Shown here: positions 1 through 34,494 of the stretch, piece by piece
Layout of the letters: each line of letters starts with the position of its first letter
Numbering within the stretch: the first letter of the stretch is position 1
Source: Torpedo marmorata
Lineage: Eukaryota
Assembly: GCA_977017645.1 (NCBI GenBank)
Contig: OZ360224.1
Location: forward strand, 207,514,001 to 207,578,000
DNA: 64,000 nt
Direction: 5' to 3'
The notes under the pieces: model-generated
The model's database searches: none
What the model saw: the letters and a program-made list of their open reading frames with translations, nothing else
Told to the model about the DNA's origin: nothing
Translations under genes and position numbers: made by a program

Positions 1-2
1 TT

Positions 3-1751
3 CCGATCCCCGTTACCCCCAAAGCACTCAAACGATGCCTCGGGTTTTTCTCCTATTATGCGCAGTGGGTCCCCAACTACTCGGACAAAGCCCGACCCTT
101 CGTCAAATCCACCAAGTTTCCCCTTGCAGCGGAGGCACGTGAGGCTTTCGACCTCATAAAAGGGGACATCGCCCGAGCAGCGATGCACGCGGTGGACGAG
201 TCGGAACCTTTTCAGGTGGAGAGTGACGCCTCGGACTTCGCACTGGCTGCTACCCTCAACCAGGCGGGAAGACCGGTAGCGTTCTTCTCCCGCACCCTTC
301 AAGGCCCCGAAATTCGGCACTCTGCGGTAGAGAAAGAGGCCCAGGCCATTGTCGAGGCTGTTCGGCATTGGAGGCACTATCTCGCCGGAAAACATTTTAC
401 CCTGCTGACGGACCAGCGCTCCGTCGCATTCATGTTTAACTGCCAGCAGCGGGGTAAAATTAAAAATGACAAGATCATGAGGTGGAGAATAGAGCTCTCC
501 ACCTACAATTACGACATCATTTACCGGCCCGGGAAGCTCAACGAGCCCCCTGACGCTCTATCCCGGGGATCGTGCGCCAGCGCGCAGATCGACCGGTTAT
601 ACTCCCTCCATAATGACCTCTGCCACCCAGGAGTTACCAGGCTGTTCCACTTCATCAAAGCACGGAACCTGCCTTTCTCCCTAGATGAGGTCAAGACCAT
701 GACCAGCAGCTGCCGAGTCTGTGCGGAATGCAAACCGCAGTACTACCGCCCCGACAGAGCACAGCTGGTCAAAGCCACCCGCCCATTCGAACGTCTCAGT
801 ATAGACTTCAAGGGCCCCCTTCCAACCACGAACCGCAATGTGTACTTCCTCAACATCATCGATGAGTACTCGCGGTTCCCCTTTGCCATCCCCTGCCCAG
901 ATACCTCGGCGGCGTCGGCTATCAAGGCTCTCCACCAGGTTTTCACCGTGTTCGGGTTCCCCAGCTATGTCCATAGCGACCGGGGATCCGCGTTCATGAG
1001 CGGGGAGCTGCGACAGCACCTGCAGACCCGAGGCATCGCTACCAGCAGGACCACGGGGTACAACCCACGGGGGAATGGACAGGTGGAGAGGGAGAACGCC
1101 ACAGTATGGACAGCGACACTACTGGCCCTCAAAGCAAAAGGGTGGCCAGTGGCTCGCTGGCAGGAGGTTCTCCCGGACGCCCTCCACTCTATACGATCCC
1201 TCTTATGTACCGCCACTAACACTACCCCTCACGAACGTATCTTTTCCTTCCCCAGAAAATCGACCACCGGAACTACACTCCCTGCCTGGCTGACGTCCCC
1301 GGGGCCGGTGCTACTCCGCAAACATCTTCGGAGTAGCAAGTACGAGCCCTTAGTCGAGAGGGTGCAGCTGATCCATGCAAACCCGCAATACGCATTCGTG
1401 GTTCTCCCCGACGGGCGGGAGGACACGGTGTCAATACGGGACCTGGCGCCTGCAGGAGCGTCTGAAGAGGTCCCCGACAGCGGGAACGCCGGGTCGCAGC
1501 TGCCCCCTCCGGCCCATCCGCCTCCCAGCACGACGTTGTCTCCGTCACAGCTGGTCTGGCCACTAACCAGGCAGGAGGCGAACCAGCCCCAGATCCACCC
1601 TACTGTACCTACTCCCATTCCACAGCCACAACCATCTCCGCAGGTATCACGTTTTCCCACTCGTACCCTCATTCCACAACCACTACCATCACCGCTGACG
1701 CTACGCAGGTCACGGCGGCACATCCGGCCGCCGGCGAAACTCGATCTGTAA
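3..1751 (+). CDS. pol: 3' part of Gypsy Pol (RT connection, RNase H, integrase) of the upstream tandem copy; ORF enters from outside the window
   Basis: RNase H motifs ESDASD, EKEAQA, LTDQRS. Integrase HHCC (LHNDLCHPG..CRVC), SIDFKGP, HSDRG, NGQVER. Matches the next copy except PTT vs PST. Confidence 0.95.
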   Translation, partial: PIPVTPKALKRCLGFFSYYAQWVPNYSDKARPFVKSTKFPLAAEAREAFDLIKGDIARAAMHAVDESEPFQVESDASDFALAATLNQAGRPVAFFSRTLQGPEIRHSAVEKEAQAIVEAVRHWRHYLAGKHFTLLTDQRSVAFMFNCQQRGKIKNDKIMRWRIELSTYNYDIIYRPGKLNEPPDALSRGSCASAQIDRLYSLHNDLCHPGVTRLFHFIKARNLPFSLDEVKTMTSSCRVCAECKPQYYRPDRAQLVKATRPFERLSIDFKGPLPTTNRNVYFLNIIDEYSRFPFAIPCPDTSAASAIKALHQVFTVFGFPSYVHSDRGSAFMSGELRQHLQTRGIATSRTTGYNPRGNGQVERENATVWTATLLALKAKGWPVARWQEVLPDALHSIRSLLCTATNTTPHERIFSFPRKSTTGTTLPAWLTSPGPVLLRKHLRSSKYEPLVERVQLIHANPQYAFVVLPDGREDTVSIRDLAPAGASEEVPDSGNAGSQLPPPAHPPPSTTLSPSQLVWPLTRQEANQPQIHPTVPTPIPQPQPSPQVSRFPTRTLIPQPLPSPLTLRRSRRHIRPPAKLDL

Positions 1752-1833
1752 ATAAAGAAAACTGTATATTATCTATGTATATGTGTATTTTTTTTCTACG
1801 GTATCCACTTCACCCCCCCGTCGGACTTGTTCT

Positions 1834-1848
1834 AAAAGAAGGGGTGAA
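1834..1848 (+). promoter_or_regulatory. Polypurine tract (second copy at 6310-6324)
   Basis: AAAAGAAGGGGTGAA directly before the LTR-initial TG. Confidence 0.85.
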
Positions 1849-2096
1849 TGTGGTAAACCACTTTGTATGTATTGTGGCCTGAGGCAGGTATGACCATGAC
1901 CTGTCTGTCTGTCCCGGTGACCCCTCCCCTTTTACCTGGAATAAAGGCCTTGAGCCAGCAACTCCTCCCCCAGTTCCGGGACAATCCAGCAGGGATCATC
2001 AGGTCAAGGCATAGCTAGCCCTGGCTTGATTCTGTTAATAAAAGCCTGTTAATTCCTGCACTTCTAGACTCGTGTCAGTTATTGATAGGTATATCA
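1849..2096 (+). repeat. Shared middle LTR, 248 bp
   Basis: TGTGGTAAACC...GGTATATCA, repeated at 6325-6572 with one substitution seen. AATAAA at 2037-2042. Confidence 0.95.
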
Positions 2097-2109
2097 ATTT
2101 TATTAACAG
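2032..2109 (+). promoter_or_regulatory. Putative self-priming stem-loop replacing a tRNA PBS
   Basis: CTGTTAATAAAA (2032-2043) is the exact reverse complement of TTTTATTAACAG (2098-2109). No TGG-type PBS follows the LTR. Confidence 0.75.
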
Positions 2110-2128
2110 TTTCAACGAAATACGATCA

Positions 2129-5100
2129 ATGGAGAATTTGTTAAAGCCAGACAAGCTAGACATCGACCCCCTGGCCCAAGACGCTGCTAGCGATTTTGAA
2201 CTTTGGCAACGCTGCTTCACAGCCTACATGAGGTCGTCCGGAGCAGCTACTGACGAGCAGAAACTCGATATCCTCATGTCTAGGGTAAGCAAGCGAGTGT
2301 ATGGCGCCGTCAGAGACTGTAGGACTTTTGATGATGCCTTGGTCGCCCTCCAAACGCTGTACCTGACGCCTGCGAACGAGATTTTTGCAAGGCACCGGAT
2401 ATCGCAGCGGTACCAGCGACCCGGAGAGTCGGTCTCCGAGTATATCCAAGATGTGATGCTAATGGTGCGAGCATGTGCCTGTCGAGCCCTGGCGGCTGAG
2501 CAACACTCCGAGATGCTGGCAAGGGACACTATCATAAAAGGGATCAGGTCAGGCTACATCCGCCAGCGATTGCTGGAACACGCTGACCTGACCCTGAAAT
2601 CGACTGTCCAGAACATCCTGAACCTGGACTCAGCCCTAAAGAACGCCGACGCTATGCAGGCGCAGCCTGCTTCTTGGATCGCCCCAGCCGTCAGCCCTAC
2701 AAGCAACGCGACCGCCGCTGCTGTCTACCGGGACCCGCTTGCCGCCGCCGCCGCTATCCGTGAGTTGGCCGCTGCCGCCGCTGCCCGAGAGCCCGCCGCT
2801 ACCTGTGAGTTAACCGCCGCCGCTATCACCCGGGAGCCCGAGAAGTGTTACTTCTGCGGGCTCGACAAGCACCCGCGCAAGCGCTGCCCGGCCCGAGACG
2901 CGACTTGTTCTAGCTGTGGCAAGAAAGGCCACTATGCTAAGGTCTGCCGCTCCAAGTCGCGCACGGGTCCGAGCAGCGCCGCGTGCGAGGTACGGGAGCG
3001 GCCATCTTCCTCGACTCCACTTCCGGCGGAGACCTCGTGCGAGGTCTGGAGGCGGCCATCACAGCGCACTGCACTTCCGGTTTCCAGCAGCGCCACGTGC
3101 GACGGGAGGGGGCGGCCATCTTACATGACGTCACTTCCTGCGGAGACCTCGTGCGAGGACTGGAGGCGGCCATTTCCGATCTCTACATTTCCGGCGCGGC
3201 CATTTTATAATCTCACCGCAGCACTTCCAGCACTTCCGGCTCCACCCTCTCGTAGCGACACGTACGAGCTACGGGAGCTGCCACCGGATCAAGACGACTC
3301 GTCGGATCAAGACCTCGTCTCGACCCTGGCATCTGTGACGCTGGACCAGAGCGCGCCCCATCAACTGTCCAGATCCATGATGGACATCCTCGTTGAGGGG
3401 CATAAGACCACCTGCCTGTTCGACACAGGCAGTACAGAAAGTTTTATACACCCAGACACTGCCCAGCGCTGTGGCCTCACCATTGTACCGGTAAGCCAGA
3501 GGGTGGCCATGGCGTCTGGAACGCACACAACAGACATCCGGGGGGGTTGTGTGGCGAATATAGTGGTACAGGGCACGGAATATCGAGAGTTTTCATTGTT
3601 GGTCATGCCCCGTTTATGTGCTCCTGTATTGCTGGGATTGGACTTCCAAAGCCACCTGCGTAGCGTCACCATGCACTATGATGGGCCCCACCCCCCGATC
3701 GTAGTGACTAACCCCCAATATTTAACTAACACGCCCCAGACTACCTGTGGTCTCTCCATGCTAAAGACCCAACCCCCGCCACTCTTCGCCAACCTGACCC
3801 CTGACTGTAAGCCCATCGCAACTAAAAGTAGGCGATACAGTACAGGGGACAGGGCATTTATTAAGGCGGAGGTGCAGCGTTTACTGGGGGAAGGGATCAT
3901 TGCACCCAGTAATAGCCCCTGGAGAGCTCAGGTAGTGGTGGTGAAGAACGGGGCTAAGAGCCGGATGGTGGTGGACTATAGTCAGACCATCAACCGGTTC
4001 ACGCAACTGGACGCCTACCCGCTGCCAAAGATCGCGGATATGGTCAACCAGATTGCCCAATATAAAGTGTTCTCCACCATCGACCTTAAGTCGGCTTACC
4101 ATCAGCTCCCAATCCGCCGGGAGGACCGAGTATACACCGCTTTCGAGGCGGACGGCAGATTATTCCATTTTCTGCGCGTCCCCTTCGGGGTAACAAATGG
4201 GGTATCCGTGTTCCAAAGGGAGATGGACAGGATCATTGACCAGTTCAAGCTCACTGCCACCTTCCCGTACCTGGACGACATCACCATTTGTGGTCATGAC
4301 CGCCAGGATCACGATAGGAACCTTCGGAAGTTCTTACAGGCGGCCGAGACGCTGAACCTCACCTATAATAAGGAGAAATGCGTGTTCGGGACTACCCGAC
4401 TCGCTATCCTGGGGTGCGTCGTGGAAAACGGGGTGATTGGACCCGACCCCGACCGCATGCGCCCCCTGTTGGAACTTCCGATCCCCGTTACCCCCAAAGC
4501 ACTCAAACGATGCCTCGGGTTTTTCTCCTATTATGCGCAGTGGGTCCCCAACTACTCGGACAAAGCCCGACCCTTCGTCAAATCCACCAAGTTTCCCCTT
4601 GCAGCGGAGGCACGTGAGGCTTTCGACCTCATAAAAGGGGACATCGCCCGAGCAGCGATGCACGCGGTGGACGAGTCGGAACCTTTTCAGGTGGAGAGTG
4701 ACGCCTCGGACTTCGCACTGGCTGCTACCCTCAACCAGGCGGGAAGACCGGTAGCGTTCTTCTCCCGCACCCTTCAAGGCCCCGAAATTCGGCACTCTGC
4801 GGTAGAGAAAGAGGCCCAGGCCATTGTCGAGGCTGTTCGGCATTGGAGGCACTATCTCGCCGGAAAACATTTTACCCTGCTGACGGACCAGCGCTCCGTC
4901 GCATTCATGTTTAACTGCCAGCAGCGGGGTAAAATTAAAAATGACAAGATCATGAGGTGGAGAATAGAGCTCTCCACCTACAATTACGACATCATTTACC
5001 GGCCCGGGAAGCTCAACGAGCCCCCTGACGCTCTATCCCGGGGATCGTGCGCCAGCGCGCAGATCGACCGGTTATACTCCCTCCATAATGACCTCTGCCA

Positions 5101-6226
5101 CCCAGGAGTTACCAGGCTGTTCCACTTCATCAAAGCACGGAACCTGCCTTTCTCCCTAGATGAGGTCAAGACCATGACCAGCAGCTGCCGAGTCTGTGCG
5201 GAATGCAAACCGCAGTACTACCGCCCCGACAGAGCACAGCTGGTCAAAGCCACCCGCCCATTCGAACGTCTCAGTATAGACTTCAAGGGCCCCCTTCCAT
5301 CCACGAACCGCAATGTGTACTTCCTCAACATCATCGATGAGTACTCGCGGTTCCCCTTTGCCATCCCCTGCCCAGATACCTCGGCGGCGTCGGCTATCAA
5401 GGCTCTCCACCAGGTTTTCACCGTGTTCGGGTTCCCCAGCTATGTCCATAGCGACCGGGGATCCGCGTTCATGAGCGGGGAGCTGCGACAGCACCTGCAG
5501 ACCCGAGGCATCGCTACCAGCAGGACCACGGGGTACAACCCACGGGGGAATGGACAGGTGGAGAGGGAGAACGCCACAGTATGGACAGCGACACTACTGG
5601 CCCTCAAAGCAAAAGGGTGGCCAGTGGCTCGCTGGCAGGAGGTTCTCCCGGACGCCCTCCACTCTATACGATCCCTCTTATGTACCGCCACTAACACTAC
5701 CCCTCACGAACGTATCTTTTCCTTCCCCAGAAAATCGACCACCGGAACTACACTCCCTGCCTGGCTGACGTCCCCGGGGCCGGTGCTACTCCGCAAACAT
5801 CTTCGGAGTAGCAAGTACGAGCCCTTAGTCGAGAGGGTGCAGCTGATCCATGCAAACCCGCAATACGCATTCGTGGTTCTCCCCGACGGGCGGGAGGACA
5901 CGGTGTCAATACGGGACCTGGCGCCTGCAGGAGCGTCTGAAGAGGTCCCCGACAGCGGGAACGCCGGGTCGCAGCTGCCCCCTCCGGCCCATCCGCCTCC
6001 CAGCACGACGTTGTCTCCGTCACAGCTGGTCTGGCCACTAACCAGGCAGGAGGCGAACCAGCCCCAGATCCACCCTACTGTACCTACTCCCATTCCACAG
6101 CCACAACCATCTCCGCAGGTATCACGTTTTCCCACTCGTACCCTCATTCCACAACCACTACCATCACCGCTGACGCTACGCAGGTCACGGCGGCACATCC
6201 GGCCGCCGGCGAAACTCGATCTGTAA
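2129..6226 (+). CDS. gag-pol: Intact single-ORF Gag-Pol polyprotein (~1365 aa from ATG 2129; the ORF track starts at an upstream GTG inside the LTR)
   Basis: Two zinc knuckles (CYFCGLDKHPRKRC, CSSCGKKGHYAKVC), protease LFDTGS, RT YLDD, RNase H, HHCC/DDE integrase and a Pro-rich tail ending RRSRRHIRPPAKLDL. No stops or frameshifts. Confidence 0.95.
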   Translation: MENLLKPDKLDIDPLAQDAASDFELWQRCFTAYMRSSGAATDEQKLDILMSRVSKRVYGAVRDCRTFDDALVALQTLYLTPANEIFARHRISQRYQRPGESVSEYIQDVMLMVRACACRALAAEQHSEMLARDTIIKGIRSGYIRQRLLEHADLTLKSTVQNILNLDSALKNADAMQAQPASWIAPAVSPTSNATAAAVYRDPLAAAAAIRELAAAAAAREPAATCELTAAAITREPEKCYFCGLDKHPRKRCPARDATCSSCGKKGHYAKVCRSKSRTGPSSAACEVRERPSSSTPLPAETSCEVWRRPSQRTALPVSSSATCDGRGRPSYMTSLPAETSCEDWRRPFPISTFPARPFYNLTAALPALPAPPSRSDTYELRELPPDQDDSSDQDLVSTLASVTLDQSAPHQLSRSMMDILVEGHKTTCLFDTGSTESFIHPDTAQRCGLTIVPVSQRVAMASGTHTTDIRGGCVANIVVQGTEYREFSLLVMPRLCAPVLLGLDFQSHLRSVTMHYDGPHPPIVVTNPQYLTNTPQTTCGLSMLKTQPPPLFANLTPDCKPIATKSRRYSTGDRAFIKAEVQRLLGEGIIAPSNSPWRAQVVVVKNGAKSRMVVDYSQTINRFTQLDAYPLPKIADMVNQIAQYKVFSTIDLKSAYHQLPIRREDRVYTAFEADGRLFHFLRVPFGVTNGVSVFQREMDRIIDQFKLTATFPYLDDITICGHDRQDHDRNLRKFLQAAETLNLTYNKEKCVFGTTRLAILGCVVENGVIGPDPDRMRPLLELPIPVTPKALKRCLGFFSYYAQWVPNYSDKARPFVKSTKFPLAAEAREAFDLIKGDIARAAMHAVDESEPFQVESDASDFALAATLNQAGRPVAFFSRTLQGPEIRHSAVEKEAQAIVEAVRHWRHYLAGKHFTLLTDQRSVAFMFNCQQRGKIKNDKIMRWRIELSTYNYDIIYRPGKLNEPPDALSRGSCASAQIDRLYSLHNDLCHPGVTRLFHFIKARNLPFSLDEVKTMTSSCRVCAECKPQYYRPDRAQLVKATRPFERLSIDFKGPLPSTNRNVYFLNIIDEYSRFPFAIPCPDTSAASAIKALHQVFTVFGFPSYVHSDRGSAFMSGELRQHLQTRGIATSRTTGYNPRGNGQVERENATVWTATLLALKAKGWPVARWQEVLPDALHSIRSLLCTATNTTPHERIFSFPRKSTTGTTLPAWLTSPGPVLLRKHLRSSKYEPLVERVQLIHANPQYAFVVLPDGREDTVSIRDLAPAGASEEVPDSGNAGSQLPPPAHPPPSTTLSPSQLVWPLTRQEANQPQIHPTVPTPIPQPQPSPQVSRFPTRTLIPQPLPSPLTLRRSRRHIRPPAKLDL

Positions 6227-6324
6227 ATAAAGAAAACTGTATATTATCTATGTATATGTGTATTTTTTTTCTACGGTATCCACTTCACTCCCCCCGTCGG
6301 ACTTGTTCTAAAAGAAGGGGTGAA

Positions 6325-6572
6325 TGTGGTAAACCACTTTGTATGTATTGTGGCCTGAGGCAGGTATGACCATGACCTGTCTGTCTGTCCCGGTGACCCC
6401 TCCCCTTTTACCTGGAATAAAGGCCTTGAGCCAGCAACTCCTCCCCCAGTTCCGGGACAATCCAGCAGGGATCATCAGGTCAAGGCATAGCTAGCCCTGG
6501 CTTGATTCTGCTAATAAAAGCCTGTTAATTCCTGCACTTCTAGACTCGTGTCAGTTATTGATAGGTATATCA
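6325..6572 (+). repeat. 3' LTR of the tandem, 248 bp
   Basis: Copy of 1849-2096. Ends GGTATATCA and is followed directly by the satellite. Confidence 0.95.
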
Positions 6573-9500
6573 CAGAGGTGAACTCCATCCCGGGGAGAGG
6601 TGAACTCCATCCCGGGGAGAGATGAACTCCATCCCGGGGAGAGATGAACTCCATCCCGGGGAGAGATGAACTCCAACCCGGGGAGAGATGAACTCCATCC
6701 CGGGGAGAGATGAACTCCAACCCGGGGAGAGGTGAACTCCATCCCGGGGAGAGATGAACTCCATCCCGGGGAGAGATGAACTCCATCCCGGGGAGAGATG
6801 AACTCTAACCCGGGGATTGGTGAACTCCATCCCGGGGAGAGGTGAACTCCATCCCGGGGAGTGGTGAACTCCATCCCGGGGAGAGGTGAACTCCATCCCG
6901 GGGAGTGGTGAACTCCATCCCGGGGAGAGGTGAACTCCATCCCGGGGAGAGGTGAACTCCATCCCGGGGAGAGGTGAACTCCATCCCGGGGAGTGGTGAA
7001 CTCCATCCCGGGGAGAGATGAACTCCATCCCGGGGAGAGATGAACTCCATCCCGGGGAGAGATGAACTCCATCCCGGGGAGAGATGAACTCTAACCCGGG
7101 GATTGGTGAACTCCATCCCGGGGAGAGGTGAACTCCATCCCGGGGATTGGTGAACTCCATCCCGGGGAGAGGTGAACTCCATCCCGGGGAGAGATGAACT
7201 CTAACCCGGGGATTGGTGAACTCCATCCCGGGGAGAGGTGAACTCCATCCCGGGGAGTGGTGAACTCCATCCCGGGGAGAGATGAACTCCATCCCGGGGA
7301 GAGGTGAACTCCATCCCGGGGAGAGATGAACTCCATCCCGGGGAGAGATGAACTCCATCCCGGGGAGAGGTGAACTCCATCCCGGGGAGAGGTGAACTCC
7401 ATCCCGGGGATTGGTGAACTCCATCCCGGGGAGAGGTGAACTCCATCCCGGGGAGAGGTGAACTCCATCCCGGGGAGAGGTGAACTCCATCCCGGGGAGA
7501 GATGAACTCCATCCCGGGGAGAGATGAACTCCATCCCGGGGAGAGATGAACTCCATCCCGGGGAGAGATGAACTCCATCCCGGGGAGAGATGAACTCCAT
7601 CCCGGGGAGAGATGAACTCCATCCCGGGGAGAGATGAACTCCATCCCGGGGAGAGGTGAACTCCATCCCGGGGAGAGGTGAACTCCATCCCGGGGAGAGG
7701 TGAACTCCATCCCGGGGAGAGGTGAACTCCATCCCAGGGATTGGTGAACTCCATCCCGGGGAGAGATGAACTCCATCCCGGGGAGAGATGAACTCCATCC
7801 CGGGGAGAGGTGAACTCCATCCCGGGGAGTGGTGAACTCCATCCCGGGGAGAGATGAACTCCATCCCGGGGAGAGATGAACTCCATCCCGGGGAGAGGTG
7901 AACTCCATCCCGGGGATTGGTGAACTCCATCCCGGGGAGAGATGAACTCCATCCCGGGGAGAGATGAACTCCATCCCGGGGAGAGGTGAACTCCATCCCG
8001 GGGAGAGATGAACTCCATCCCGGGGAGAGGTGAACTCCATCCCGGGGAGAGATGAACTCCATCCCGGGGAGAGATTAACTCCATCCCGGGGAGAGATGAA
8101 CTCCATCCCGGGGAGAGGTGAACTCCATCCCGGGGAGAGATGAACTCCATCCCGGGGAGAGATGAACTCAATCCCGGGGAGAGGTGAACTCCATCCCGGG
8201 GAGAGATGAACTCCATCCCGGGGAGAGGTGAACTCCATCCCGGGGAGAGGTGAACTCCATCCCGGGGAGAGATGAACTCCATCCCGGGGAGAGATGAACT
8301 CAATCCCGGGGAGAGGTGAACTCCATCCCGGGGAGAGATGAACTCAATCCCGGGGAGAGGTGAACTCCATCCCGGGGAGAGATGAACTCCATCCCGGGGA
8401 GAGATGAACTCCATCCCGGGGAGAGATGAACTCCATCCCGGGGAGAGATGAACTCCATCCCGGGGAGAGGTGAACTCCATCCCGGGGAGAGGTGAACCCG
8501 ATCCCGGGGAGAGGTGAACTCCATCCCGGGGAGAGATGAACTCCATCCCGGGGAGAGATGAACTCCATCCCGGGGAGAGATGAACTCCATCCCGGGGAGA
8601 GATGAACTCCATCCCGGGGAGAGATGAACTCCATCCCGGGGAGTGGTGAACTCCATCCCGGGGAGAGGTGAACTCCATCCCGGGGAGAGATGAACTCCAT
8701 CCCGGGGAGAGATGAACTCCATCCCGGGGATTGGTGAACTCCAACCCGGGGAGAGATGAACTCCATCCCGGGGAGAGGTGAACTCCATCCCGGGGAGAGA
8801 TTAACTCCATCCCGGGGAGAGATGAACTCCATCCCGGGGAGAGGTGAACTCCATCCCGGGGAGAGGTGAACTCCATCCCGGGGAGAGATGAACTCCAACC
8901 CGGGGAGAGATGAACTCCATCCCGGGGAGAGGTGAACTCCATCCCAGGGGAGAGGAGAACTCCATCCCGGGGAGAGGTGAACTCCATCCCGGGGAGAGAT
9001 GAACTCCATCCCGGGGAGAGGTGAACTCCATCCCGGGGAGAGGTGAACTCCATCCCGGGGAGAGATGAACTCCATCCCGGGGAGAGATGAACTCCATCCC
9101 GGGGAGAGGTGAACTCCATCCCGGGGAGAGATGAACTCCATCCCGGGGAGAGATGAACTCCATCCCGGGGAGAGATGAACTCCATCCCGGGGAGAGATGA
9201 ACTCCATCCCGGGGAGAGATGAACTCCATCCCGGGGAGAGATGAACTCCATCCCGGGGAGAGATGAACTCCATCCCGGGGAGAGATGAACTCCATCCCGG
9301 GGAGAGATGAACTCCATCCCGGGGAGAGGTGAACTCCATCCCGGGGAGAGGTGAACTCCATCCCGGGGAGAGATGAACTCCAACCCGGGGAGTGGTGAAC
9401 TCCATCCCGGGGAGAGGTGAACTCCATCCCGGGGAGAGATGAACTCCATCCCGGGGAGAGATGAACTCCATCCCGGGGAGAGGTGAACTCCATCCCGGGG

Positions 9501-11602
9501 AGAGATGAACTCCATCCCGGGGAGAGATGAACTCCATCCCGGGGAGAGATGAACTCCATCCCGGGGAGAGATGAACTCCATCCCGGGGAGAGATGAACTC
9601 CATCCCGGGGAGAGGTGAACTCCATCCCGGGGAGAGATGAACTCCATCCCGGGGAGAGGTGAACTCCATCCCGGGGAGAGATGAACTCCAACCCGGGGAG
9701 AGGTGAACTCCATCCCGGGGAGAGGTGAACTCCATCCCGGGGAGAGATGAACTCCATCCCGGGGAGAGATGAACTCCATCCCGGGGAGAGGTGAACTCCA
9801 TCCCGGGGAGAGGTGAACTCCATCCCGGGGAGAGGTGAACTCCATCCCGGGGAGAGGTGAACTCCATCCCGGGGAGAGATGAACTCCATCCCGGGGAGAG
9901 ATGAACTCCATCCCGGGGAGTGGTGAACTCCATCCCGGGGAGAGATGAACTCCATCCCGGGGAGAGGTGAACTCCATCCCGGGGAGAGGTGAACTCCATC
10001 CCGGGGAGAGGTGAACTCCATCCCGGGGAGAGATGAACTCCATCCCGGGGATTGGTGAACTCCATCCCGGGGAGAGATGAACTCCATCCCGGGGAGAGAT
10101 GAACTCCATCCCGGGGAGAGGTGAACTCCATCCCGGGGAGAGGTGAACTCCATCCCGGGGAGAGATGAACTCCATCCCGGGGAGAGATGAACTCCATCCC
10201 GGGGAGAGGTGAACTCCATCCCGGGGAGAGATGAACTCCATCCCGGGGAGAGGTGAACTCCATCCCGGGGAGAGATGAACTCCATCCCGGGGAGAGATGA
10301 ACTCCAACCCGGGGAGAGATGAACTCCATCCCGGGGAGAGGTGAACTCCATCCCGGGGAGAGATGAACTCCATCCCGGGGAGAGATGAACTCCATCCCGG
10401 GGAGAGATGAACTCCATCCCGGGGAGAGATGAACTCCATCCCGGGGAGAGGTGAACTCCATCCCGGGGAGAGATGAACTCCATCCCGGGGAGAGATGAAC
10501 TCCATCCCGGGGAGAGATGAACTCCATCCCGGGGAGAGGTGAACTCCATCCCGGGGAGAGATGAACTCCATCCCGGGGAGAGATGAACTCCATCCCGGGG
10601 AGAGATGAACTCCAACCCGGGGAGAGATGAACTCCATCCCGGGGAGAGGTGAACTCCATCCCGGGGAGAGGTGAACTCCATCCCGGGGAGAGATGAACTC
10701 CATCCCGGGGAGAGATGAACTCCATCCCGGGGAGAGGTGAACTCCAACCCGGGGAGAGGTGAACTCCATCCCGGGGAGAGATGAACTCCATCCCGGGGAG
10801 AGATGAACTCCATCCCGGGGAGAGATGAACTCCAACCCGGGGAGAGGTGAACTCCATCCCGGGGAGAGGTGAACTCCATCCCGGGGAGAGGTGAACTCCA
10901 TCCCGGGGAGAGGTGAACTCCATCCCGGGGAGAGATGAACTCCATCCCGGGGAGAGGTGAACTCCATCCCGGGGAGAGATGAACTCCATCCCGGGGAGAG
11001 ATGAACTCCATCCCGGGGAGAGGTGAACTCCATCCCGGGGAGAGGTGAACTCCATCCCGGGGAGAGGTGAACTCCATCCCGGGGAGAGATGAACTCCATC
11101 CCGGGGAGAGATGAACTCCATCCCGGGGAGAGGTGAACTCCATCCCGGGGATTGGTGAACTCCATCCCGGGGAGAGATGAACTCCAACCCGGGGAGAGAT
11201 GAACTCCATCCCGGGGATTGGTGAACTCCATCCCGGGGAGAGATGAACTCCATCCCGGGGAGAGATGAACTCCATCCCGGGGAGAGGTGAACTCCATCCT
11301 GGGGAGAGATGAACTCCATCCCGGGGAGAGGTGAACTCCATCCCGGGGAGAGATGAACTCCATCCCGGGGAGAGGTGAACTCCATCCCGGGGAGAGGTGA
11401 ACTCCATCCCGGGGAGAGATGAACTCCATCCCGGGGAGAGATGAACTCTAACCCGGGGAGAGATGAACTCCATCCCGGGGAGAGATGAACTCCATCCCGG
11501 GGAGAGATGAACTCCATCCCGGGGAGAGATGAACTCCATCCCGGGGAGAGGTGAACTCCATCCCGGGGAGAGGTGAACTCCATCCCGGGGAGAGGTGAAC
11601 TT
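6573..11602. repeat. 22-bp tandem satellite/minisatellite, consensus GGGGAGAG(A/G)TGAACTCCATCCC, about 228 units
   Basis: Direct reading of uninterrupted 22-bp periodicity with a few recurrent variants. Confidence 0.98.
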
Positions 11603-12103
11603 CAACCTGTGGAGAGGTCAACCCCTCCCTGGGGAGCTGCTCCATCCAAAGCAGGAGAAGACACCCTCAGCAACCAGCAAATCCACCCTTATTCACCCTG
11701 CCAATCTCCGAAATACTTGGCGAAATGTTCACCCTAACCCGGGGAAATGCCCCGTTTCCAAGGCACAATTGCAATATCGGCACCCACACCCAGCGTCGAA
11801 TCCAACTCCTGTCTGGCCTTCCGCAGCGATGCCACAGTGGCTAGTGTCAATAATTTCTCACCAATGTACTGCCTGCAAACCAAGAGCAGCCGGAAATTCA
11901 CCCCCATATTTATGAATAACACCTGCATTCTTTTCTGTAATTACCATATAAATAGAAAGGAAATTCGAATGGACAAATCATGAAACATCATGGCCCAGGC
12001 AAATCATGATCCAACCCATGCGGACTCATTTATTAATGAACTTAGTGTAACTTATTAACTAACTTTGTCCATGCAACTCATGATCCAACTCTGTTCAGGA
12101 AAG

Positions 12104-14729: not shown

Positions 14730-16070
14730 TAAGGATAGGATCTATGAACATTTAGAGAAGTACAGTCTACTCAAGGATAGTCAGCATGGCTTTGTGAAGG
14801 GTAGGTCGTACCTCACGAGTCTAATTGAGTTTTTTGAGGAGATAACAAGAAATCTATGAGGGTAGGGCGATAAGTGTGGTCTATATAGATTTTAATAAGG
14901 CATTTAACAAGATTCCCCGTGCGAGACTTGTTCAGAAAGTCATGAGGCATGTGATCTATGAAACCTTGGCTGTGTGGATAAAAAATTGGCTTGCATGTAG
15001 AAAGAAGAGAGTAGTAGTGGAAGGAAAGTATTCTGCCTGGAGGTCAGTGACGAGTGGAATTCTGCAAGGATCTGTTCAGAGACCCTTGCGCTTTGTGATC
15101 TTTATAAATGATAAAGATAAAGAAGCAGAAGGATGGGTCAGTAAGTATGCGGATGTTACGAAGGTTGGAGGAGTTGTGGATGGAGCTGAAGGTTGTCGTA
15201 GGTTACAAAAGGATATAGACAGGATGCAGAGTTGGGTGGAAAGGTGGCAGATGGAGTTCAATCCGGATAAATGTGAGGTGATGCATTTTGGAAGGACAAA
15301 CCAGAAGGCTGAGTACAGGGTTAATGGTCGGTCACTTAAGAGAGTGGATGAAGAGAGGGATATTGTGGTCCATATCCATACATCCCTCAAGGTCACGGCA
15401 CACGTTGATAGAATAGTTAAGAAGACCTATGGGATGCTGGGCTTCATTAATAAGGGGATTGAGTTCAGGAGTCGAGAGGTCATGTTGCAACTCTACAAAT
15501 CTCTGGTGAGACCACACTTAGAGTATTGTGTTCAGTTCTGGTCACCTCATTATATGAAGGATGTGGAAGCTATGGAGAGGGTGCAGAGGAGATTTACCAG
15601 GATGTTGCCTGGATTAGAAAATAAGTCTTATAAGGCAAGGTTAACAGAGCTGGGCCGTTTCTCTTCAGAGCGAAGAAGGATGAGAGGAGACTTAATAGAG
15701 GTCTACAAGATTATGAAAGGCATAGATAGGGTGGACAGCCAGCACCTGTTTCCCATGGCAGAAATAGCAAACACCAGAGGACATATGTACAAAGTGAAGG
15801 GAGGGAAGTTTAGGGGAGACATCAGGGGTAAGTTTTTTTACACAGAGAGTTGTGGGTGCCTGGAATGCCTTGCCAGGGATGGTGGTGGAGGCTGAAACAT
15901 TAGAATCATTTAAGCGACTTAGACAGGCACATGGATGGAAGAAAAATAGAGTGTTACAGGGTAGGGAGGATTTAGTATTTTCTTAAGGAATATATGGGTC
16001 AGCACAACATTGAGGGCTGAAGGGCCTGTACTGTGCTGCAGTGTTCTGCGTTCTATGTCTATGTTCTATG
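14730..16070 (+). mobile_element. 5'-truncated CR1 LINE (RT ORF remnant 14876-15895)
   Basis: YIDFNKAF, SKYADVTK, VRPHLEYCVQFWSP, ERRRMRGDLIEVYK, and an (TTCTATG)-type tail. Confidence 0.92.
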
Positions 16071-19868: not shown

Positions 19869-22800
19869 TGGATGTAGGAAAATTTTTGGAATCACCTGAA
19901 ACTGATACTTTAAAAAAGACGAAAAAGGAACAGTTAGTGGCTATAGCAACAGAGTTGGGCATTGCTTCAGTAAAACCATCTATGAAAAAGGAAGATATTG
20001 GGAGAAAAATTGTCAAATACTATATAAAAGAAAAAAAGTTTGAGGAGAGCGTGTTAGAGCAGTTTCCCAAGGGTTAACCTTCTGAAAACATACAGTTGGA
20101 ACTAAAGAAATTGGAATTGGAACAAAAGAGGTTAGACTTGGAGGTAGCCAAGGAACAAAAGAAAATAGACACGGAATTGGAAGAAAAGAGATTAGACTTA
20201 GAGAACGAGGAGAAAAATAGGATATATGAGCTGGAAAAGATGAGGTTGGGAAATGAGAGGAGACAAGAAGAGCACCAAGATCAAATTTGTCATCCTGCTG
20301 AGGGGTTTTTGGCTAGTAGAGAAGTTATGTTGGTTCCTCCATTTGAGGAGGCAGAAATAGATAAGTACTTTCAGCATTTTGAGAAGGTGGCTGTGAAATT
20401 AAAATGGCCACAAGACCAATGGTCTCTTATGTTACAAAGTGTAATAAAAGGAAAAGCTCAGCAAGCTTATTCTATTCTTACCATGGAGCAAGCTGCTGAT
20501 TATGAAACAGTGAAAAAGGCTATACTCCAGGCTTATGAGTTCGTTCAAGAGGCTGATAGACAGAAGTTTAGAAATTTAAAAAGATCAGCAACCCAATCTT
20601 ACACAGAGTTTGCCTATGAAAAGGTTGTGTGTTTTGACCGGTGGTGCACATCTCAGGCGGTAAACAATGATTACAATCAATTGAGAGAATTGATAATAAT
20701 TGAGGAGATAAAACGGTGTGTTCCTGAGGATATTAAGGCATACTTAGATGAAAAGGAGGTTAAAACTTGGCAAAATTCAGCTAAGTTAGCAGATGAATAT
20801 GCTTTAACCCACAAGCCTAAGTGGACGTCAGGCAGAATTTTCCAAAAGGTCAATGTGGATAATCCCGAGCAAGTGGAAAGTAAATTTGGAAGTGGTGTTA
20901 AGGAGAAAGATGAAAGAAAGTGGAAAAGGGAAAATCCTTCGGGTCCCATTTGCCACTACTGTAGGAAGGCTGGTCATATGCTAGCAAGCTGTCCAGTGTT
21001 GAAAAAGAAGAGAGAAAAGGATGCAACACCTAATGCTTGTATTCAGAGTGAGAAAAGGCATAACACCCAGGAAGGAAATAAATTTACTGACAATGTTAGG
21101 GATGTATTTAAACCTTTTGTGACTGATGGTTTTGTTTCAGTTAAGGCAGGATCAAAACAAGTTCCAGTGAAAATCTTGCGAGATACTGGAGCTGCTCAGT
21201 CACTTGTGTTAGATAGTGTCTTGGAATTTTGTGAAGCTACTGACACCGGTGACATGAATTTAATTAAAGGAATTGGGGGTGATGTTGAGTCCATTAATTT
21301 GCACAAAATAGTGTTGGACTCAGACTTGGTGGAAGGACCTGTTATAATAGGAGTGAGATCAGAGTTGCCAGTAGAAGGAGTCTCACTGTTGCTAGGCAAT
21401 GACTTGGCCAACGGTAAAGTAGTTCTTGCAGTGCGAATGACCACTAAGCCAGTCAGTGATAAGTCAGAGAAAGACTCTGATATTTATCCGGCACGTGCCA
21501 TAACCAGGGCCATGTCTAAGAAAAATGTCACTGTAGAGAAGGCAGTGGAAAATAAATTGGTGAAAGAAAAAGTCAGTGACAATCAAGAACACCTGGAAAA
21601 GGTTGAGCAATCTCCTGTGTTACACCCATCCACTGATAAGACAACTAAAGGCACAGATTTGTCACTATCCCGACAGGAGTTAATAGCAAGGCAAAATAAC
21701 GATCCTGATCTTGCTGAGGTGAGGGATAAGGTTCTCTCTGAAGAGGAGATTAAAAAGGTGCCAGTGGGTTATTATGAAAAAGATGGGGTGTTGATGAGAA
21801 AGTGGAGACCATGTGATGTTCCTGCCAATGAAGAATGGGCAGTAGTGCAGCAGATTGTGATCCCTAAAGTATATAGGGATGCAATAATAACTTTGGCTCA
21901 TAGCACACCATTAGGTGGTCACCTTGTGGTGAAGAAAACTATAAGGAAGATAATGAAACAAATTTATTGGCCCAGTTTGAGAAGGGAGGTTGTAAGCTTT
22001 TGCCGGGCCTGTCACACTTGTCAGGTGGTGGGTAAACCTAATCAGGGTCCCCCGGTGGCACCCTTGCAACCTATCCCTGCTTTCAGTGAGCCTTTCTCGA
22101 GAGTGATTGTGGACTGTCTTGGCCCATTGCCCAAAACCAAAGCGGGGAATGAGTATTTGTTAACAATTATTTGTGCAGCCACCAGATTTCCAGAAACATT
22201 AAAGCAAAGTCAATTGTAAAGGCTATGGTAAAGTTTTTCACCTTGGTAGGTTTGCCAAGGGAAATTCAGTCAGATTAGGGCAGTAATTTCATGACAGGCG
22301 TTTTCCAACAAGTGGTTGATGGACTGGGAGTTAAACAGATTGTATCCTCTGCGTACCATCCAGAAAGTCAAGGGGACTTGGAGAGGTTCCATTCGACTTT
22401 GAAAAACATGATTAGAACCTATTGTCATGAGAAAGAAAAGGATTGGGATGAGGGGGTTCATTTGTTGTTATTTGCAGCGAGGGAGTCTGTCCAAGAATCA
22501 CTTGGTTTTAGTCCATTCGAGTTAGTTTTCGGACATGAGGTGAGAGGTCCTTTAAGATTATTAAAAGAACAGTGGATTAATAGTGATGTGCATTTAAATC
22601 TGTTAGATTATGTTTCCAAATTTAAGGATCGGTTGCATAGGGCTTGTGAGATGGCAAAGGAGACTTTAAAGGCCACTCAACAGAGAATGAAGGTTTGGTA
22701 TGATCGAAAGGCCAAGATGAGAACTTTTAAACCTGGTGAGAATGTATTAGTTCTGTTTCCCATCCATTCAAATCTTCTTAGGGCTAGATTTTGAGGACCC

Positions 22801-23685
22801 TATAGAGTTAAGTCAAAAATTAATGAGGTCACCTATGTCATAGAAACACCTAATCACAGACGAGACACACAGGTCTGTCATGTGAATATGATTAAGCCAT
22901 ATTTTGAACAGGTGTAGCACAAAGATACTGAACATTTACCAGAGGTATTGTTTATCAACCGGGGTAAGGAGTAGATAGATAAAACCAGTTTCAGAGAGGG
23001 TCATGGGACTGTTAATTCTCGGGGTTATGTAGTAGGACAGGGGCAGTTGGCGCCAGTAGAGGAAAAGGTTGTGACTATTTCCGAGTTCCCTGTTCCAACT
23101 GGTAAGAAAACTCTGAGGACGTTCCTGGGAATGATTGGCTACTACCGCAAGTTCTATAAAAACTTTGCTGATCTTGTGCTCCCTCTCACAAATTTGCTTA
23201 GAAAGAGAGAAAAATTTGTATGGTCGACAGGTTGTCAGGAAGCAGTTGTCAAATTGAAAGCCATGTTATGCCACCAACCTGTGCTTAAGTCACCTAATTT
23301 AGAACAGCCGTTTTTTTTAGCCATGGATGCCAGCGATGAAGTTGTGGGCGCGGTGCTGTTACAGAAGAAGAATGAGGATGACATTGACCATCCGGTATCC
23401 TACTTCTCGAAGAAGTTCAATGATCATCAAAGGAATTATTCAACCATAGAAAAAGCGTTGTTAGTTCTTGTGTTGTCTCTACAACATTTTGATGTTTATA
23501 TCTGTACAGCTCAAAAAACACTCATAGTGTATACTGACCATAATCCATTGGTTTTTCTATGTAAAATGAAAAATAAGAATCGACGGTTGTTGAATTGGAG
23601 TCTAATTTTGCAAGAATATGATTTAGTAATAACACATATAAAAGGGAAAGATAATGTAATTGCTGATTGTCTTTCCAGATGCTAA
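19869..23685 (+). pseudogene. gag-pol: Disrupted gag-pol of the Gmr1-type element
   Basis: CHYCRKAGHMLASC knuckle, LRDTGA protease, GGHL..CHTC and YHPESQGDLERFH integrase, MDASD/YTDHNPL RNase H. Stops and frameshifts present. Confidence 0.9.
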
Positions 23686-29729: not shown

Positions 29730-32700
29730 TGATGTACCTATCAATGACAGACGCGAGTCTGGAAGTGCAGGAAATCAATAGGCTTTTAATACCAGAAATC
29801 AGGCCAGGGCTAAGCTACACTTTGACCTGGTTATCCCTGCTGGATTGTCCCGGAACTGAGGGAGGAGTCAATGGCTCAAGGCCTTTATTCCAGGGGAAAG
29901 GGGGGAGGAGTCACCGGGACAGACAGACAGGTCATGGTCATACTTGCCTCAGGCCACAATACATATATACATACTAAAGTGGTTTACCACATTCACCCCT
30001 TCTTTTAGAACAAGTCCGACGGGGGGGGTGAAGTGGATACCGTAATTAAAGAAAACACAATTAAACATAGATTATTTACATAGTCATTATTACGTCTACA
30101 GGTTGAGTCTAACCGGCGGCCGGATTCGCCGCTGTGAACTGCGTAATACCAGCGGTGATGGTAGTGGTTGTGGAATGAGGGTACGTGATGCCTGCGGAGA
30201 TGGTTGTGGTTGTGGAACGGGAGTAGGTGTAGTAGGGTGGGTCTGGGTCTGGTTTGCCTCCTGCCTGGCTTGTGGCCTTTCCAGCTCCGGCTGGGGCGTT
30301 GTACCCGTCGTGCTGGGAGGCGGATGGGCCGGAGGGGGCAGCTGTGACCCGGCGTTCCCGCTGTCGGGGACCTCTTCTGACGCTCCTGCAGGCGCCAGGT
30401 CCCGTATTGACACCGTGTCTTTCGCCCGTCGGGGAAAACCACGAATGCGTACTGCGGGTTCGCATGGATCAGCTGCACCCTCTCGACCAAGGGCTCGTAC
30501 TTGCTACTCCGAAGATGTTTGCGGAGTAGCACCGGTCCCGGGGACGTCAGCCAGGCAGGGAGGGTAGTCCCGGTAGTCGATTTTCTGGGGAAGGAAAAGA
30601 GACGTTCGTGAGGGGTAGCGTTAGTGGCAATACATAAGAGGGATCGTATAGAGTGGAGGGCGTCCGGGAGAACCTCCTGCCAGCGGGCCACTGGCCACCC
30701 TTTTGATTTCAGGGCCAGTAGTGTAGCTGTCCATACAGTGGCGTTCTCCCTCTCCACCTGTCCGTTCCCCCGTGGGTTGTACCCCGTGGTCCTACTGGTG
30801 GCGATGCCTCGGGTCTGCAAATGCTGTCGCAGCTCCTCGCTCATGAACGCGGATCCCCGGTCGCTATGGATATAGCTGGGGAACCCGAACAAGGTGAATA
30901 CCTGGCGGAGGGCCTTGATAGCCGAAGCCGCCGAGGTATCTGGGCAGGGGATGGCAAAGGGGAACCGCGAGTACTCATCGATGATGTTAAGGAAGTACAC
31001 ATTGCGGTTCGTGGAGGGAAGGGGGCCCTTGAAGTCTACACTGAGACGTTCGAACGGGCGTGTGGCCTTGACCAGCTGTGCTCTGTCGGGGCGGTAGTAC
31101 TGCGGTTTGCATTCTGCACAGACTCGGCAGCTGCTGGTCATGGTTCTGACCTCATCCAGGGAGAAAGGCAGGTTCCGTGCTTTGATGAAGTGGAACAGCC
31201 TGGTGACTCCTGAGTGGCAGAGGTCGTTGTGTAGGGAGTATAACCGGTCGATCTGCGCGCTGGCGCACGATCCCCGGGATAGAGCGTCAGGGGGCTCGTT
31301 GAGCTTCCCGGGCCGGTACATGATGTCGTAATTGTAGGTGGAGAGTTCTATTCTCCACCTCATGATTTTGTCATTCTTGATTTTACCCCGCTGCTGGCTG
31401 TTAAACATGAATGCGACGGAGCGCTGGTCCGTCAGCAGGGTAAAATATTTTCCGGCGAGATAGTGCCTCCAGTGCCGAACAGCCTCAACAATGGCCTGGG
31501 CCTCTTTCTCTACCGCGGAGTGCCGAATTTCGGGGCCTTGAAGGGTGCGGGAGAAAAACGCTACCGGTCTTCCCGCCTGGTTGAGGGTAGCAGCCAGTGC
31601 GAAGTCCGAGGCGTCACTCTCCACCTGAAAAGTTTCCGACTCGTCCACCGCGTGCATCGCTGCTCGGGCGATGTCCCCTTTTATGAGGTCGAAAGCCTCA
31701 CGTGCCTCCGCTGCAAGGGGAAACTTGGTGGACTTGACGAGGGGTCGGGCTTTGTCCGCGTAGTTTGGGACCCACTGCGCATAATACGAGAAGAACCCGA
31801 GGCATCGTTTAAGGGCTTTGGGGGTAAGGGGAATCGGAAGTTCCAACAGGGGGCGCATGCGGTCGGGGTCGGGTCCAATCACCCCGTTCTCCACGACGCA
31901 CACCAGGATAGCGAGTCGGGTAGTCCCGAACACGCATTTCTCCTCGTTATAGGTGAGGTTCAGCGTCTTAGCCGTCTGCAGGAACTTCCGAAGGTTCCTA
32001 TCGTGATCCTGGCGATCATGACCACAAATGGTGATGTCGTCCAGGTACGGGAAGGTGGCAGTGAGCTTGAACTGGTCAATGATCCTGTCCATCTCCCGTT
32101 GAAAAACGGATAACCCATTTGTTTCCCCGAAGGGGACGCGCAGAAAATGGAATAATCTGCCGTCCGCCTCGAAAGCGGTGTACGCTCGGTCCTCCCGGCG
32201 AATCGGAAGCTGGTGGTAAGCTGACTTTAGGTCGATAGTGGAGAATACTTTATACTGCGCGATCTGGTTGACCATATCCACGATTCTTGGCAGCGGATAG
32301 GCATCCAGTTGCGTGAACCGGTTGATGGTCTGGCTATAGTCCACCACCATCTGGCTCTTAGCCCCGTTCTTCACCACGACTACCTGTGCTCTCCAGGGGC
32401 TGTTACTGGGTGCTATGATCCCTTCCCCCAGTAAACGATGCACCTCCGCCTTAATGAATGCCCTGTCCCCTGCACTGTATCGCCTACTTTTAGTTGCAAT
32501 GGGCTTACAGTCAGGGGTCAGGTTGGCGAAAAGTGGCGGGGGTTGGGTCTTCAGCGTGGAGAGACCACAGGTAGTCTGGGGCGTATTATTCAAATACTGG
32601 GGGTTAGTCACTACGATCGGGGGGTGGGGCCCATCATAGTGCATGGTGACGCTTCGCAGGTGGCTTTGGAAGTCCAGTCCCAGCAATACAGGAGCACACA

Positions 32701-34494
32701 AACGGGGCATGACCATCAATGAAAACCCGCGATATTCCGTGCCCTGCACTACTATATTCGCCACACAACCCCCCCGGATGTCTGTTGTGTGCGTTCCAGA
32801 CGCCATGGCCACCCTCTGGCTTACCGGTACAATGGTGAGGCCACAGCGCTGGGCAGTGTCTGGGTGAATAAAACTTTCAGTGCTGCCTGTGTCGAACAGG
32901 CAGGTAGTCTTATGCCCCTCAACTAGTATGTCCATCATCGATCTGGACAGCTGATGGGGCGCGCTCTGATCCAGCGTCACGGATGCCAGGGTCGAGACGT
33001 AGTCTTGATCCGACGAGTCGTCTTGATCCGACGCTGATGGCAGCTCCCGTAGCGCACACGTGTCGCTACAAGATGGCGGCGCCGGAAGTGCTGGCAAAGC
33101 CGCGGCGAGGTTGTAAAATGGCCGCGCCGGAAATGTAGAAACCGGAAGTGCAGAAGGCCAAGATGGCCGCCTCCATTCCTCGCACGAGGTCTCCGCCGTA
33201 AGTGACGACAGGTAAGATGGCCGCTCCCCTACTTCGCACGCGGCGCTGCTCGAAACCCGAAGTGCTGAAAACCGAGATGGCCGCCTCCATTCCTCGCACG
33301 AGGTCTCCGCCGGAAGTGACGACAGGTAAGATGGCCGCTCCCTTACTTCGCACGCGGCGCTGCTCGGACCCGTACGCGACTTGGAGCGGCAGGCTTTAGC
33401 ATAGTGGCCTTTCTTGCCACAGCTAGAACAAGTCGCGTCTCGGGCCGGGCAGCGCTTGCGTGGGTGTTTGTCGAGCCCGCAGAAGTAGCACTTCTTGGGC
33501 TCCCGGGTGACAGCGGCAGCGGTTAACTCACGGGTGGCGGCGGTCTACCGGGCAGCGGCGGCAGCGGCCAACTCACGGATAGCGTCGGCGGCGGCGAGCG
33601 GGTCCCGGTAGACGGCAGCGGCCGTCGGGTTGCTTGCAGGGCTGGCGGTTGGGGCGATCCAAGAGGCAGGCTGCGCCTGCATGGCGTCAGCATTCTTGAG
33701 CGCCGATTCCAGCGTGAGGGCATTCTGAACGGTAGATCTCAGGGTCAGGTCGGCGTGTTCCAGCAATCGCTGGCGAATGTAAACCGACCTGAGCCCAATA
33801 ATGATCGTGTCCCTTGCCAATATTTCGGCGTGTTGCTCAGCCGTCAGGGCTCGGCAATCGCACGCCCGCACCAGGAGCATCACGTCCTGGATGTATTCAG
33901 AGATCGACTCTCCGGGTCGCTGGTAGCGTTGCGATAACCGGTGCCTCGCGAAAACCTCGTTCACCGGCGTCAGGTACAGCCTTCGGAGGGCTTCCAAGGC
34001 ATCCTCATAGGTATCACAGTCTCTAACAGTGCCATACACTCGTTTGCTTACCCTGGACATGAGGATGTCGAGTTTATGCTCGTTGGTAACCGCTCTGGTC
34101 GACTTCAGGAAGGCTACGAAGCAGCGCAGCCAGAGTTCAAAGTCACTTGCAGCGTCTTGGGCCAGGGGGTCGATGTCCAGCTTGTCCGGCCTCAGAAAAT
34201 TCTCCATCGGATTTTTAGAACTGGTATTAAAATTGATGTACCTATCAATGACAGACGCGAGTCTGGAAGTGCAGGAAATCAATAGGCTTTTAATACCAGA
34301 AATCAGGCCAGGGCTAAGCTACACTTTGACCTGGTGATCCCTGCTGGATTGTCCCGGAACTGAGGGAGGAGTCAATGGCTCAAGGCCTTTATTCCAGGGG
34401 AAAGGGGGAGGAGTCACCGGGACAGACAGACAGGTCATGGTCATACTTGCCTCAGGCCACAATACATATATACATACTAAAGTGGTTTACCACA
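29730..34494 (-). mobile_element. Full-length Gypsy element, sister subfamily (B) of the tandem element
   Basis: LTRs at 29730-29991 and 34234-34494 are nearly identical. 5-bp TSD GAAGT (29725-29729 and 34495-34499). Same PPT; protein closely similar to 2129-6226. Confidence 0.96.
30096..34207 (-). pseudogene. gag-pol: gag-pol of element B with one nonsense codon and one frameshift
   Basis: ATG at 34207. In-frame TAG at 33545-33547 where copy A has GAG. 1-bp deletion near 30425 (DGRK vs DGRED). Confidence 0.9.

Follow-up and report, generated by a model that had tools for sequence, protein, structure and literature searches.

The window analysed here, a 64-kb stretch of DNA, contains two Ty3/Gypsy subfamilies, A and B, and these raise the question of how their reverse transcription is primed. 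The minus-strand primer of an LTR retrotransposon must bind directly after the LTR, and the sequences of both subfamilies lack a TGG-type primer-binding site (PBS) there, as the original prediction had stated. In subfamily A, the site that starts one base after the terminal CA of the LTR is perfectly complementary to a 12-nt arm within the LTR itself (Table 1). This complement lies where the minus-strand primer must bind, and therefore counts for self-priming. We conclude that the element probably primes minus-strand DNA with its own LTR arm and not with a tRNA; such tRNA-free self-priming, as originally claimed, has strong support from the covariation seen in thousands of copies, from distant relatives whose arms are entirely different, and from the run-through junctions described below.

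Table 1 Features of the subfamily A and B elements in the 64-kb window.
Feature	Positions	Strand	Basis or remarks
Preceding unit, 3' part (three-unit tandem array with common LTRs)	1..1848	+	99.9% identity to next unit; array start in locus L216
LTR of subfamily A, 248 bp, TG..CA, common to two array units	1849..2096	+	
Conserved GAATAAAGG, putative TATA-like box (rival reading: poly(A) signal)	1939..1947	+	LTR alignment, motif counts
Conserved CAGT(T/C), putative initiator; likely RNA start 1971-1972	1971..1975	+	Spacing to hexamer; two run-through stops
Predicted hairpin directly upstream of arm, within putative leader	1998..2030	+	Fold
Arm, putative 3' end of self-primer; contains AATAAA 2037-2042	2032..2043	+	Pairing, folding, covariation
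Inner stem 2045-2053/2081-2089, stacked on arm-PBS helix	2045..2089	+	Folds
Primer-binding position, complement of arm; A2097 is the single base between LTR and site; no TGG	2098..2109	+	
Single gag-pol ORF, 1365 aa	2129..6226	+	Gag with two CCHC knuckles, protease, RT, RNase H, integrase, Pro-rich tail; no chromodomain
Polypurine tract (PPT)	6313..6324	+	
Last LTR of array	6325..6572	+	One difference from 1849-2096, within arm
5' LTR of subfamily B, 261 bp; arm 34288-34299	34234..34494	-	
Primer-binding position of B, complement of B arm	34221..34232	-	
gag-pol of B	30005..34207	-	In-frame stop near 33545 splits frame
3' LTR of B	29730..29991	-	Target duplication 5 bp, ACTTC

The order Gag-PR-RT-RH-IN, the TG..CA LTRs, the PPT and the short target duplication identify the elements as Ty3/Gypsy (Metaviridae), and the window protein has the double-knuckle Gag and Pro-rich integrase tail without a chromodomain that had been described for it. 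The LTR studied here is an inner, common LTR of a three-unit tandem array that sits in a 22-bp satellite (230 copies with 95% matches at window 6574–11636), which flanks the array on both sides (window and L216). Further repeats lie within the coding region: 54- and 114-bp repeats occupy the Gag-protease linker of A and B (window 2965–3194), and a GCC-rich Ala repeat is found at 2741–2840. Elsewhere in the window, a Gypsy piece at 20078–23685, which we take to be Gmr1-like, has a SCAN domain and an integrase zinc finger upstream of RNase H, and an inverted relative of it lies at 47696–48790. Other RT fragments were detected at 14846–15895 and 42633–43427, together with degenerate 21-bp tandem arrays at 37513–38184 and 50501–51355.

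Subfamily B shows the same perfect 12-mer pairing. Its arm differs from that of A at two positions, with a compensating change in the site at both, and all sequences and coordinates originally quoted for these pairings proved correct. Compared with 200 dinucleotide shuffles per hairpin, both hairpins are unusually stable (z −7.0 for A and −5.7 for B), with 0/200 shuffles as stable in either case. The inner stem proposed to extend the hairpin is present in the minimum-energy fold of A; that of B has a partly different inner pairing. The folds predict the arm-site duplex and one flanking duplex, and none with sequence downstream of the PBS. The poly(A)-signal hexamer was correctly placed within the arm, which ends in AATAAA, ATTAAA or GTTAAA in nearly all families. 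Many relatives have short CC..GG hairpins directly after the arm, and hairpin-like stretches upstream of it were seen, by eye only, in other families. A search of positions 1800–2200 against Rfam gave nothing near a gathering score and no ribozyme.

The genome holds at least 11,000 arm/PBS junctions, and the polymorphic pair 2035/2106 allows the pairing to be followed across them. Here, 2,672 junctions carry a C arm and 2,660 a G site, 99 of the 100 listed G-site places recurring in the C-arm list; another query found 1,570 junctions, with an A site in 95 of the 100 listed, hence about 1,500 T-A pairs. The covariation foreseen in the original prediction is thus borne out by roughly 2,650 C-G against 1,500 T-A pairs, with only 18 discordant copies (8 C.A and 10 T.G). 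The other LTR of the element still matches the PBS in 13 of these 18 (6/8 C.A and 7/10 T.G), so that the change postdates insertion. The remaining T.G copies, three in number, are wobbles in both LTRs, and the remaining C.A cases are one copy with C in both LTRs and the window array. In this array (window 1849–6572 and L216), the two outer LTRs, including the 3' LTR of A at 6325–6572, have a C arm, the two inner LTRs a T arm, and every site is A.

The arm and PBS flip as a pair without their flanking markers, as judged by two background comparisons: among 24 G-site copies with an A-type U5 end, 20 combine an A-type background with a C arm (one has the other background and three a G.G mismatch), and of the 37 A-site copies that end in the other U5 type, all 30 examined carry a T arm. 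In a tree of 108 copies from which the two covarying columns were left out, arm and site must have switched jointly at least twice. Within a single genome, however, covariation is a tally of copies and not of events, and only two flips are forced. Over 25 arm/PBS contexts, which include copies chosen as mismatched, positions 1–12 are paired in 20–25 and positions 13, 14 and 15 in 17, 9 and 9. B-like copies, with about 2,000 junctions, pair perfectly in 28/29, three of them with A-U and not C-G as the outermost pair; another family group contributes 4,966 junctions. A few copies (L217; L280–L282) have a mismatch that is shared by their two LTRs. The same holds in a different family for 2 of 100 listed copies with an A.C mismatch, for which A-to-I editing of the primer was ruled out as the source, since 98 of the 100 have T. 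Mapping of R through U5 recombinants was abandoned, the U5 markers being mostly CpG-type changes.

The pairing extends to distant relatives. From 80 metagenome loci with 45–65% RT-RH identity, we located 43 gag starts, of which 7 were dropped for short upstream DNA; 28 of the remaining 36 (27/35 distinct) have a self-complement of 11–19 bp, at a cut-off of 11 bp; at random places within the same loci, maxima were ≤10. The positive loci contain about 19 different arms, with a gap of 1 in 26/28, in a constant layout: a variable arm ending TAAA, then (G/A)CC, 23–86 nt to CA, one base, and the complement. All eight loci missed at this cut-off have A-TTT after an LTR-like end, and by eye seven have imperfect or bulged arms and one (L075) no clear arm. 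In L100 and L101, a few extra PBS bases would bulge from a 13-bp pairing. A pyrimidine tract followed by CAG, resembling a splice acceptor, lies 15–35 nt upstream of the arm in L071, L074, L082, L100 and L101.

By RT-RH identity, the closest named relatives belong to rays (80–85%) and catsharks (79%), which makes a cartilaginous fish the probable host. Further clade members, known from proteins alone, were found in corals, an anemone, nematodes, an isopod and a damselfly. A Gag search matched only generic retrotransposon Gag clusters, and no relative was found in the viral contigs searched. The Cigr-1 clade of Ciona, which we take to have a ~245-bp LTR and a 1,210-codon ORF, presumably fits the 1,180–1,210 aa of the relatives. 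Overall, this is an old clade that occurs widely among animals, beyond vertebrates. The lineage had been described as a young, intact vertebrate one; the copies are indeed young, but B carries an in-frame stop and the clade is neither young nor confined to vertebrates.

Further evidence on the use of the duplex comes from aberrant copies. In one B copy, the PBS leads into LTR sequence from upstream of the arm, in reverse-complement orientation, and a targeted pattern search found 58 such run-through junctions, against 0 for a reversed-pattern control; 56 of the 58 were fetched, local or segmental duplicates among them. Inner-type copies consist of LTR, PBS and inverted U3, followed by an internal part of reduced length and an ordinary 3' LTR, with perfect 5-bp target duplications in 10/15 (8/13 and 2/2). 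End-type copies read TG-U3-arm-T-reverse U5, followed by the internal part; where both ends are visible, 14/16 have perfect 5-bp target duplications, one has 4/5, and one adjoins the PPT of another element. The run-through copies are most simply explained as reverse-transcription products placed by integrase. A plain DNA inversion between the PBS and the 3' arm was ruled out for most junctions, in which a whole normal 3' LTR and the target duplications are kept. For run-through, a 3' end located inside the 12-mer has to pair with the arm, which is what a plus strand terminating on a self-primer copy would provide. The junctions are footprints of arm-PBS priming, in which reverse transcriptase or repair used the arm-PBS duplex; taken alone, they are evidence on this duplex and not on the identity of the minus-strand primer. 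As far as the accessible text of PMC11042837 goes, the PBS copy stays single-stranded at the 3' end of Tf1 cDNA, in about half of the cDNA. A literature word search for fold-back junctions in Gypsy elements found none.

The lengths of these copies bear on the primer. Among 52 scored junctions, 39 reach the LTR start, 10 of them continuing into the PPT, which also fits a fold-back of plus-strand DNA without a long RNA primer. The other 13 are partial stops, at +51, 38, 34, 33, 27, 15, 13, 6, 5, −1, −1, −6 and −29 relative to A1972. The two at −1, at the base equal to 1971, belong to different subfamilies and each has a target duplication (rough P 0.003–0.03); one of them shows 3 nt of microhomology. 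Two of the 13 (−6 and −29) lie upstream of the putative start. Two loci have unusual structures: L344 (G000:C48:10663300-10669400) is a ~355-bp insertion with a 5-bp target duplication, in which a single LTR and the PBS are followed by an inverted copy reaching to the initiator, then by five additional letters and 14 nt from the U5 end, and L417 (G000:C59:58149600-58159400) shows repeated switches at arm/PBS ahead of a full internal part.

Promoter geometry provides a second indication of where the RNA starts. Among 162 distinct LTR left parts from the same genome, many of them near-copies, 160 contain the motif GAATAAAG; CAGT(T/C) follows it 31–34 nt on in 158 of the 162, at exactly 32 nt in 142, with an onward distance to the arm end that varies between 51 and 75 nt. 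Fixed spacing of this kind fits TATA-initiator geometry. The LTR alignment shows no TATA-like motif ~30 nt before the arm, the conserved pair lying 60 nt farther upstream; in the metagenome LTRs, such a pair was not evident by eye. Together with the two run-through stops, this geometry is suggestive of an RNA start near 1971–1972, and it makes the originally predicted start at or very near 2032 doubtful; contigs from one sequencing run of unspecified kind yielded no information on starts or joints. We slightly favour a model in which the RNA starts near 1971–1972 and the primer is a capped leader of 50–75 nt, paired only through its last 12 nt, the same helix hiding the AATAAA/ATTAAA of the 5' LTR and leaving the 3' LTR copy free. 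A start at ~1972 would place the 5' LTR hexamer 65 nt from the cap, so that hiding it would matter; masking of the poly(A) signal, originally a secondary idea, would gain importance if the start is indeed distant.

In the self-priming scheme, the transcript would fold such that the arm pairs with the PBS atop the inner stem, and the RNA would be cut between 2043 and 2044, probably by the predicted RNase H activity of the element, by analogy with Tf1. The 3' end of the arm could then be extended across A2097 and U5, the resulting short strong-stop DNA would jump to the 3' end via the segment from 2044 to the poly(A) site, and the retained primer would be copied during plus-strand synthesis.

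Self-priming could also follow a course closer to Tf1, with an RNA that starts at ~2032 and has its 12-nt 5' end cleaved off as the primer. The sharp end of the pairing at 12 nt speaks for this shorter primer, as do its resemblance to the Tf1 primer at the RNA 5' end in the accessible parts of PMC10085805 and PMC4600332, and some metagenome arms that start at initiator-like letters (L032, by eye). The position of the fixed-spacing pair and the two copies that stop at the upstream initiator site make it unlikely. A distant start, listed in the original prediction as refuting self-priming, would refute only this shorter primer. The conserved upstream AATAAA (1940–1945) might instead be the poly(A) signal of a transcript that is cleaved at CA 1971–1972; the arm would then act as a primer in trans, supplied by a second RNA or by plus-strand DNA ending in the arm. 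A CA 27 nt after AATAAA is within the usual poly(A) range, and the U3-arm-T-reverse U5 order of end-type copies is the product expected of an arm-ended plus strand priming at the PBS. Poly(A) spacing, however, is usually loose and is here fixed at 32; a GU-rich stretch is absent after 1972 but present after the arm hexamer, and extra steps are required, all of which renders the proposal improbable.

The helix might merely hide the poly(A) signal of the 5' LTR while an outside RNA primes. Such a role would agree with the hexamer that ends the arm in nearly all families and with the GU-rich downstream stretch covered by the inner stem. Nevertheless, any such RNA would need to contain the arm sequence and to change along with the arm in every family, the complement begins exactly at the priming position, run-through requires a 3' end within the 12-mer, and L069 retains a pairing of 15 bp although it lacks a poly(A)-like hexamer; we therefore consider hiding as the sole function very improbable. 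A match between the site and a host tRNA end or tRNA fragment has a negligible probability: there is no TGG, and the ~30 different site sequences across families mean that no single common tRNA is possible. In agreement, the tRNA check proposed with the original prediction gave a best complementarity of ≤7 nt among 31 distinct tRNA calls covering few anticodons, after exclusion of a single spurious call that lay on the site of an element itself.

If a large non-chromovirus animal clade does self-prime, tRNA-free priming would be common in animals, and its members would be expected to escape control by tRNA fragments. Annotation based on the PBS overlooks self-priming elements. Run-through copies, 58 of which are added by this analysis, mostly with 5-bp target duplications, make it possible to map priming intermediates with nothing more than genome sequence. 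At its broadest, our proposal is that an animal-wide, non-chromovirus Gypsy clade primes with a capped, folded, tRNA-sized leader (50–75 nt) from its own RNA, whose last 12 nt act as a switch hiding the 5' poly(A) signal, and that dozens of integrated by-products record the primer length; this combination is advanced tentatively.

The position of the clade is relevant to whether hairpin priming is an ancestral trait or one that has arisen repeatedly, a question raised in the accessible part of PMC3601003. A chromodomain is absent from 12/12 clade proteins (the window protein and 11 relatives) and present in 2/2 controls. In a Pol tree with unnamed outgroups and without Tf1 itself, the clade, as labelled to take in five loci with imperfect or unscored arms, has support of 100/99 on a long stem, and a fish chromodomain group is separate (100/98). 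When the clade was constrained to nest among chromodomain elements, p-AU was 0.044 for RT-RH-IN and 0.41 for RT-RH, and a sister position to them was not rejected (0.18 and 0.59). Its own clade and the missing chromodomain set the element apart from Tf1/sushi. Phylogenetic placement of the clade outside chromoviruses is thus supported, though not decisively, and the suggested independence from Tf1/sushi is at most a possibility, a sister relationship being compatible with the tests.

Our comparisons with known systems draw on the accessible parts of PMC10085805, PMC6317226, PMC4600332, PMC11042837, PMC3601003, PMC5006619, PMC5445492, PMC2577118, PMC6238403, PMC8556966, PMC8220671, PMC3670739, PMC11117352 and PMC5341516. 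Within these, self-priming is tied to Tf1/sushi, Tcn1 and TAR Copia, with none for an animal non-chromovirus Gypsy clade and none reported for the Mag or Cigr-1 clades; most subscription journals, Repbase and GyDB lay outside the search. A motif search of the accessible supplement of PMC6238403 for named reference elements gave no match. Two CCHC arrays, as found here, are described as typical of Mag and Micropia/Mdg3, and one of chromoviruses, in the part of PMC2577118 consulted, and the two knuckles would thus point to a Mag-like Gag.

The accessible portions of PMC10085805 and PMC11042837 describe several features shared with our element: in Tf1/Tf2 of Schizosaccharomyces pombe, Tj1 and Tf1/sushi, the PBS pairs with the element's own LTR and no tRNA is used; in Tf1/sushi, U5 forms an additional duplex with the LTR downstream of the primer; and Tf1 keeps a PBS copy at the cDNA end and forms tandem copies with a common LTR. 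Unlike Tf1/sushi, the element described here has neither a chromodomain nor a Tf2-type SH3 match, carries two CCHC knuckles, shares only ~30% RT identity and falls in a separate clade; only two of the three 'pretzel' duplexes are seen in the predicted folds, and its arm contains the poly(A) hexamer. In contrast to Tf1, its RNA likely starts 40–60 nt upstream of the arm, judging from the LTR motifs. Self-priming has also been predicted from LTR complementarity for the Tcn1 clade in mosses and for the TAR/Houba/Osr-1 Copia lineage, so that in TAR it arose earlier outside chromoviruses, as far as the accessible text of PMC6317226 goes; those are plant elements and TAR is Ty1/copia, whereas the clade described here is an animal Gypsy clade. 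Priming from the element's own LTR at the PBS is therefore known already, and proven in yeast Tf1; what is new here is its probable occurrence in an animal Gypsy clade, perhaps with a long leader.
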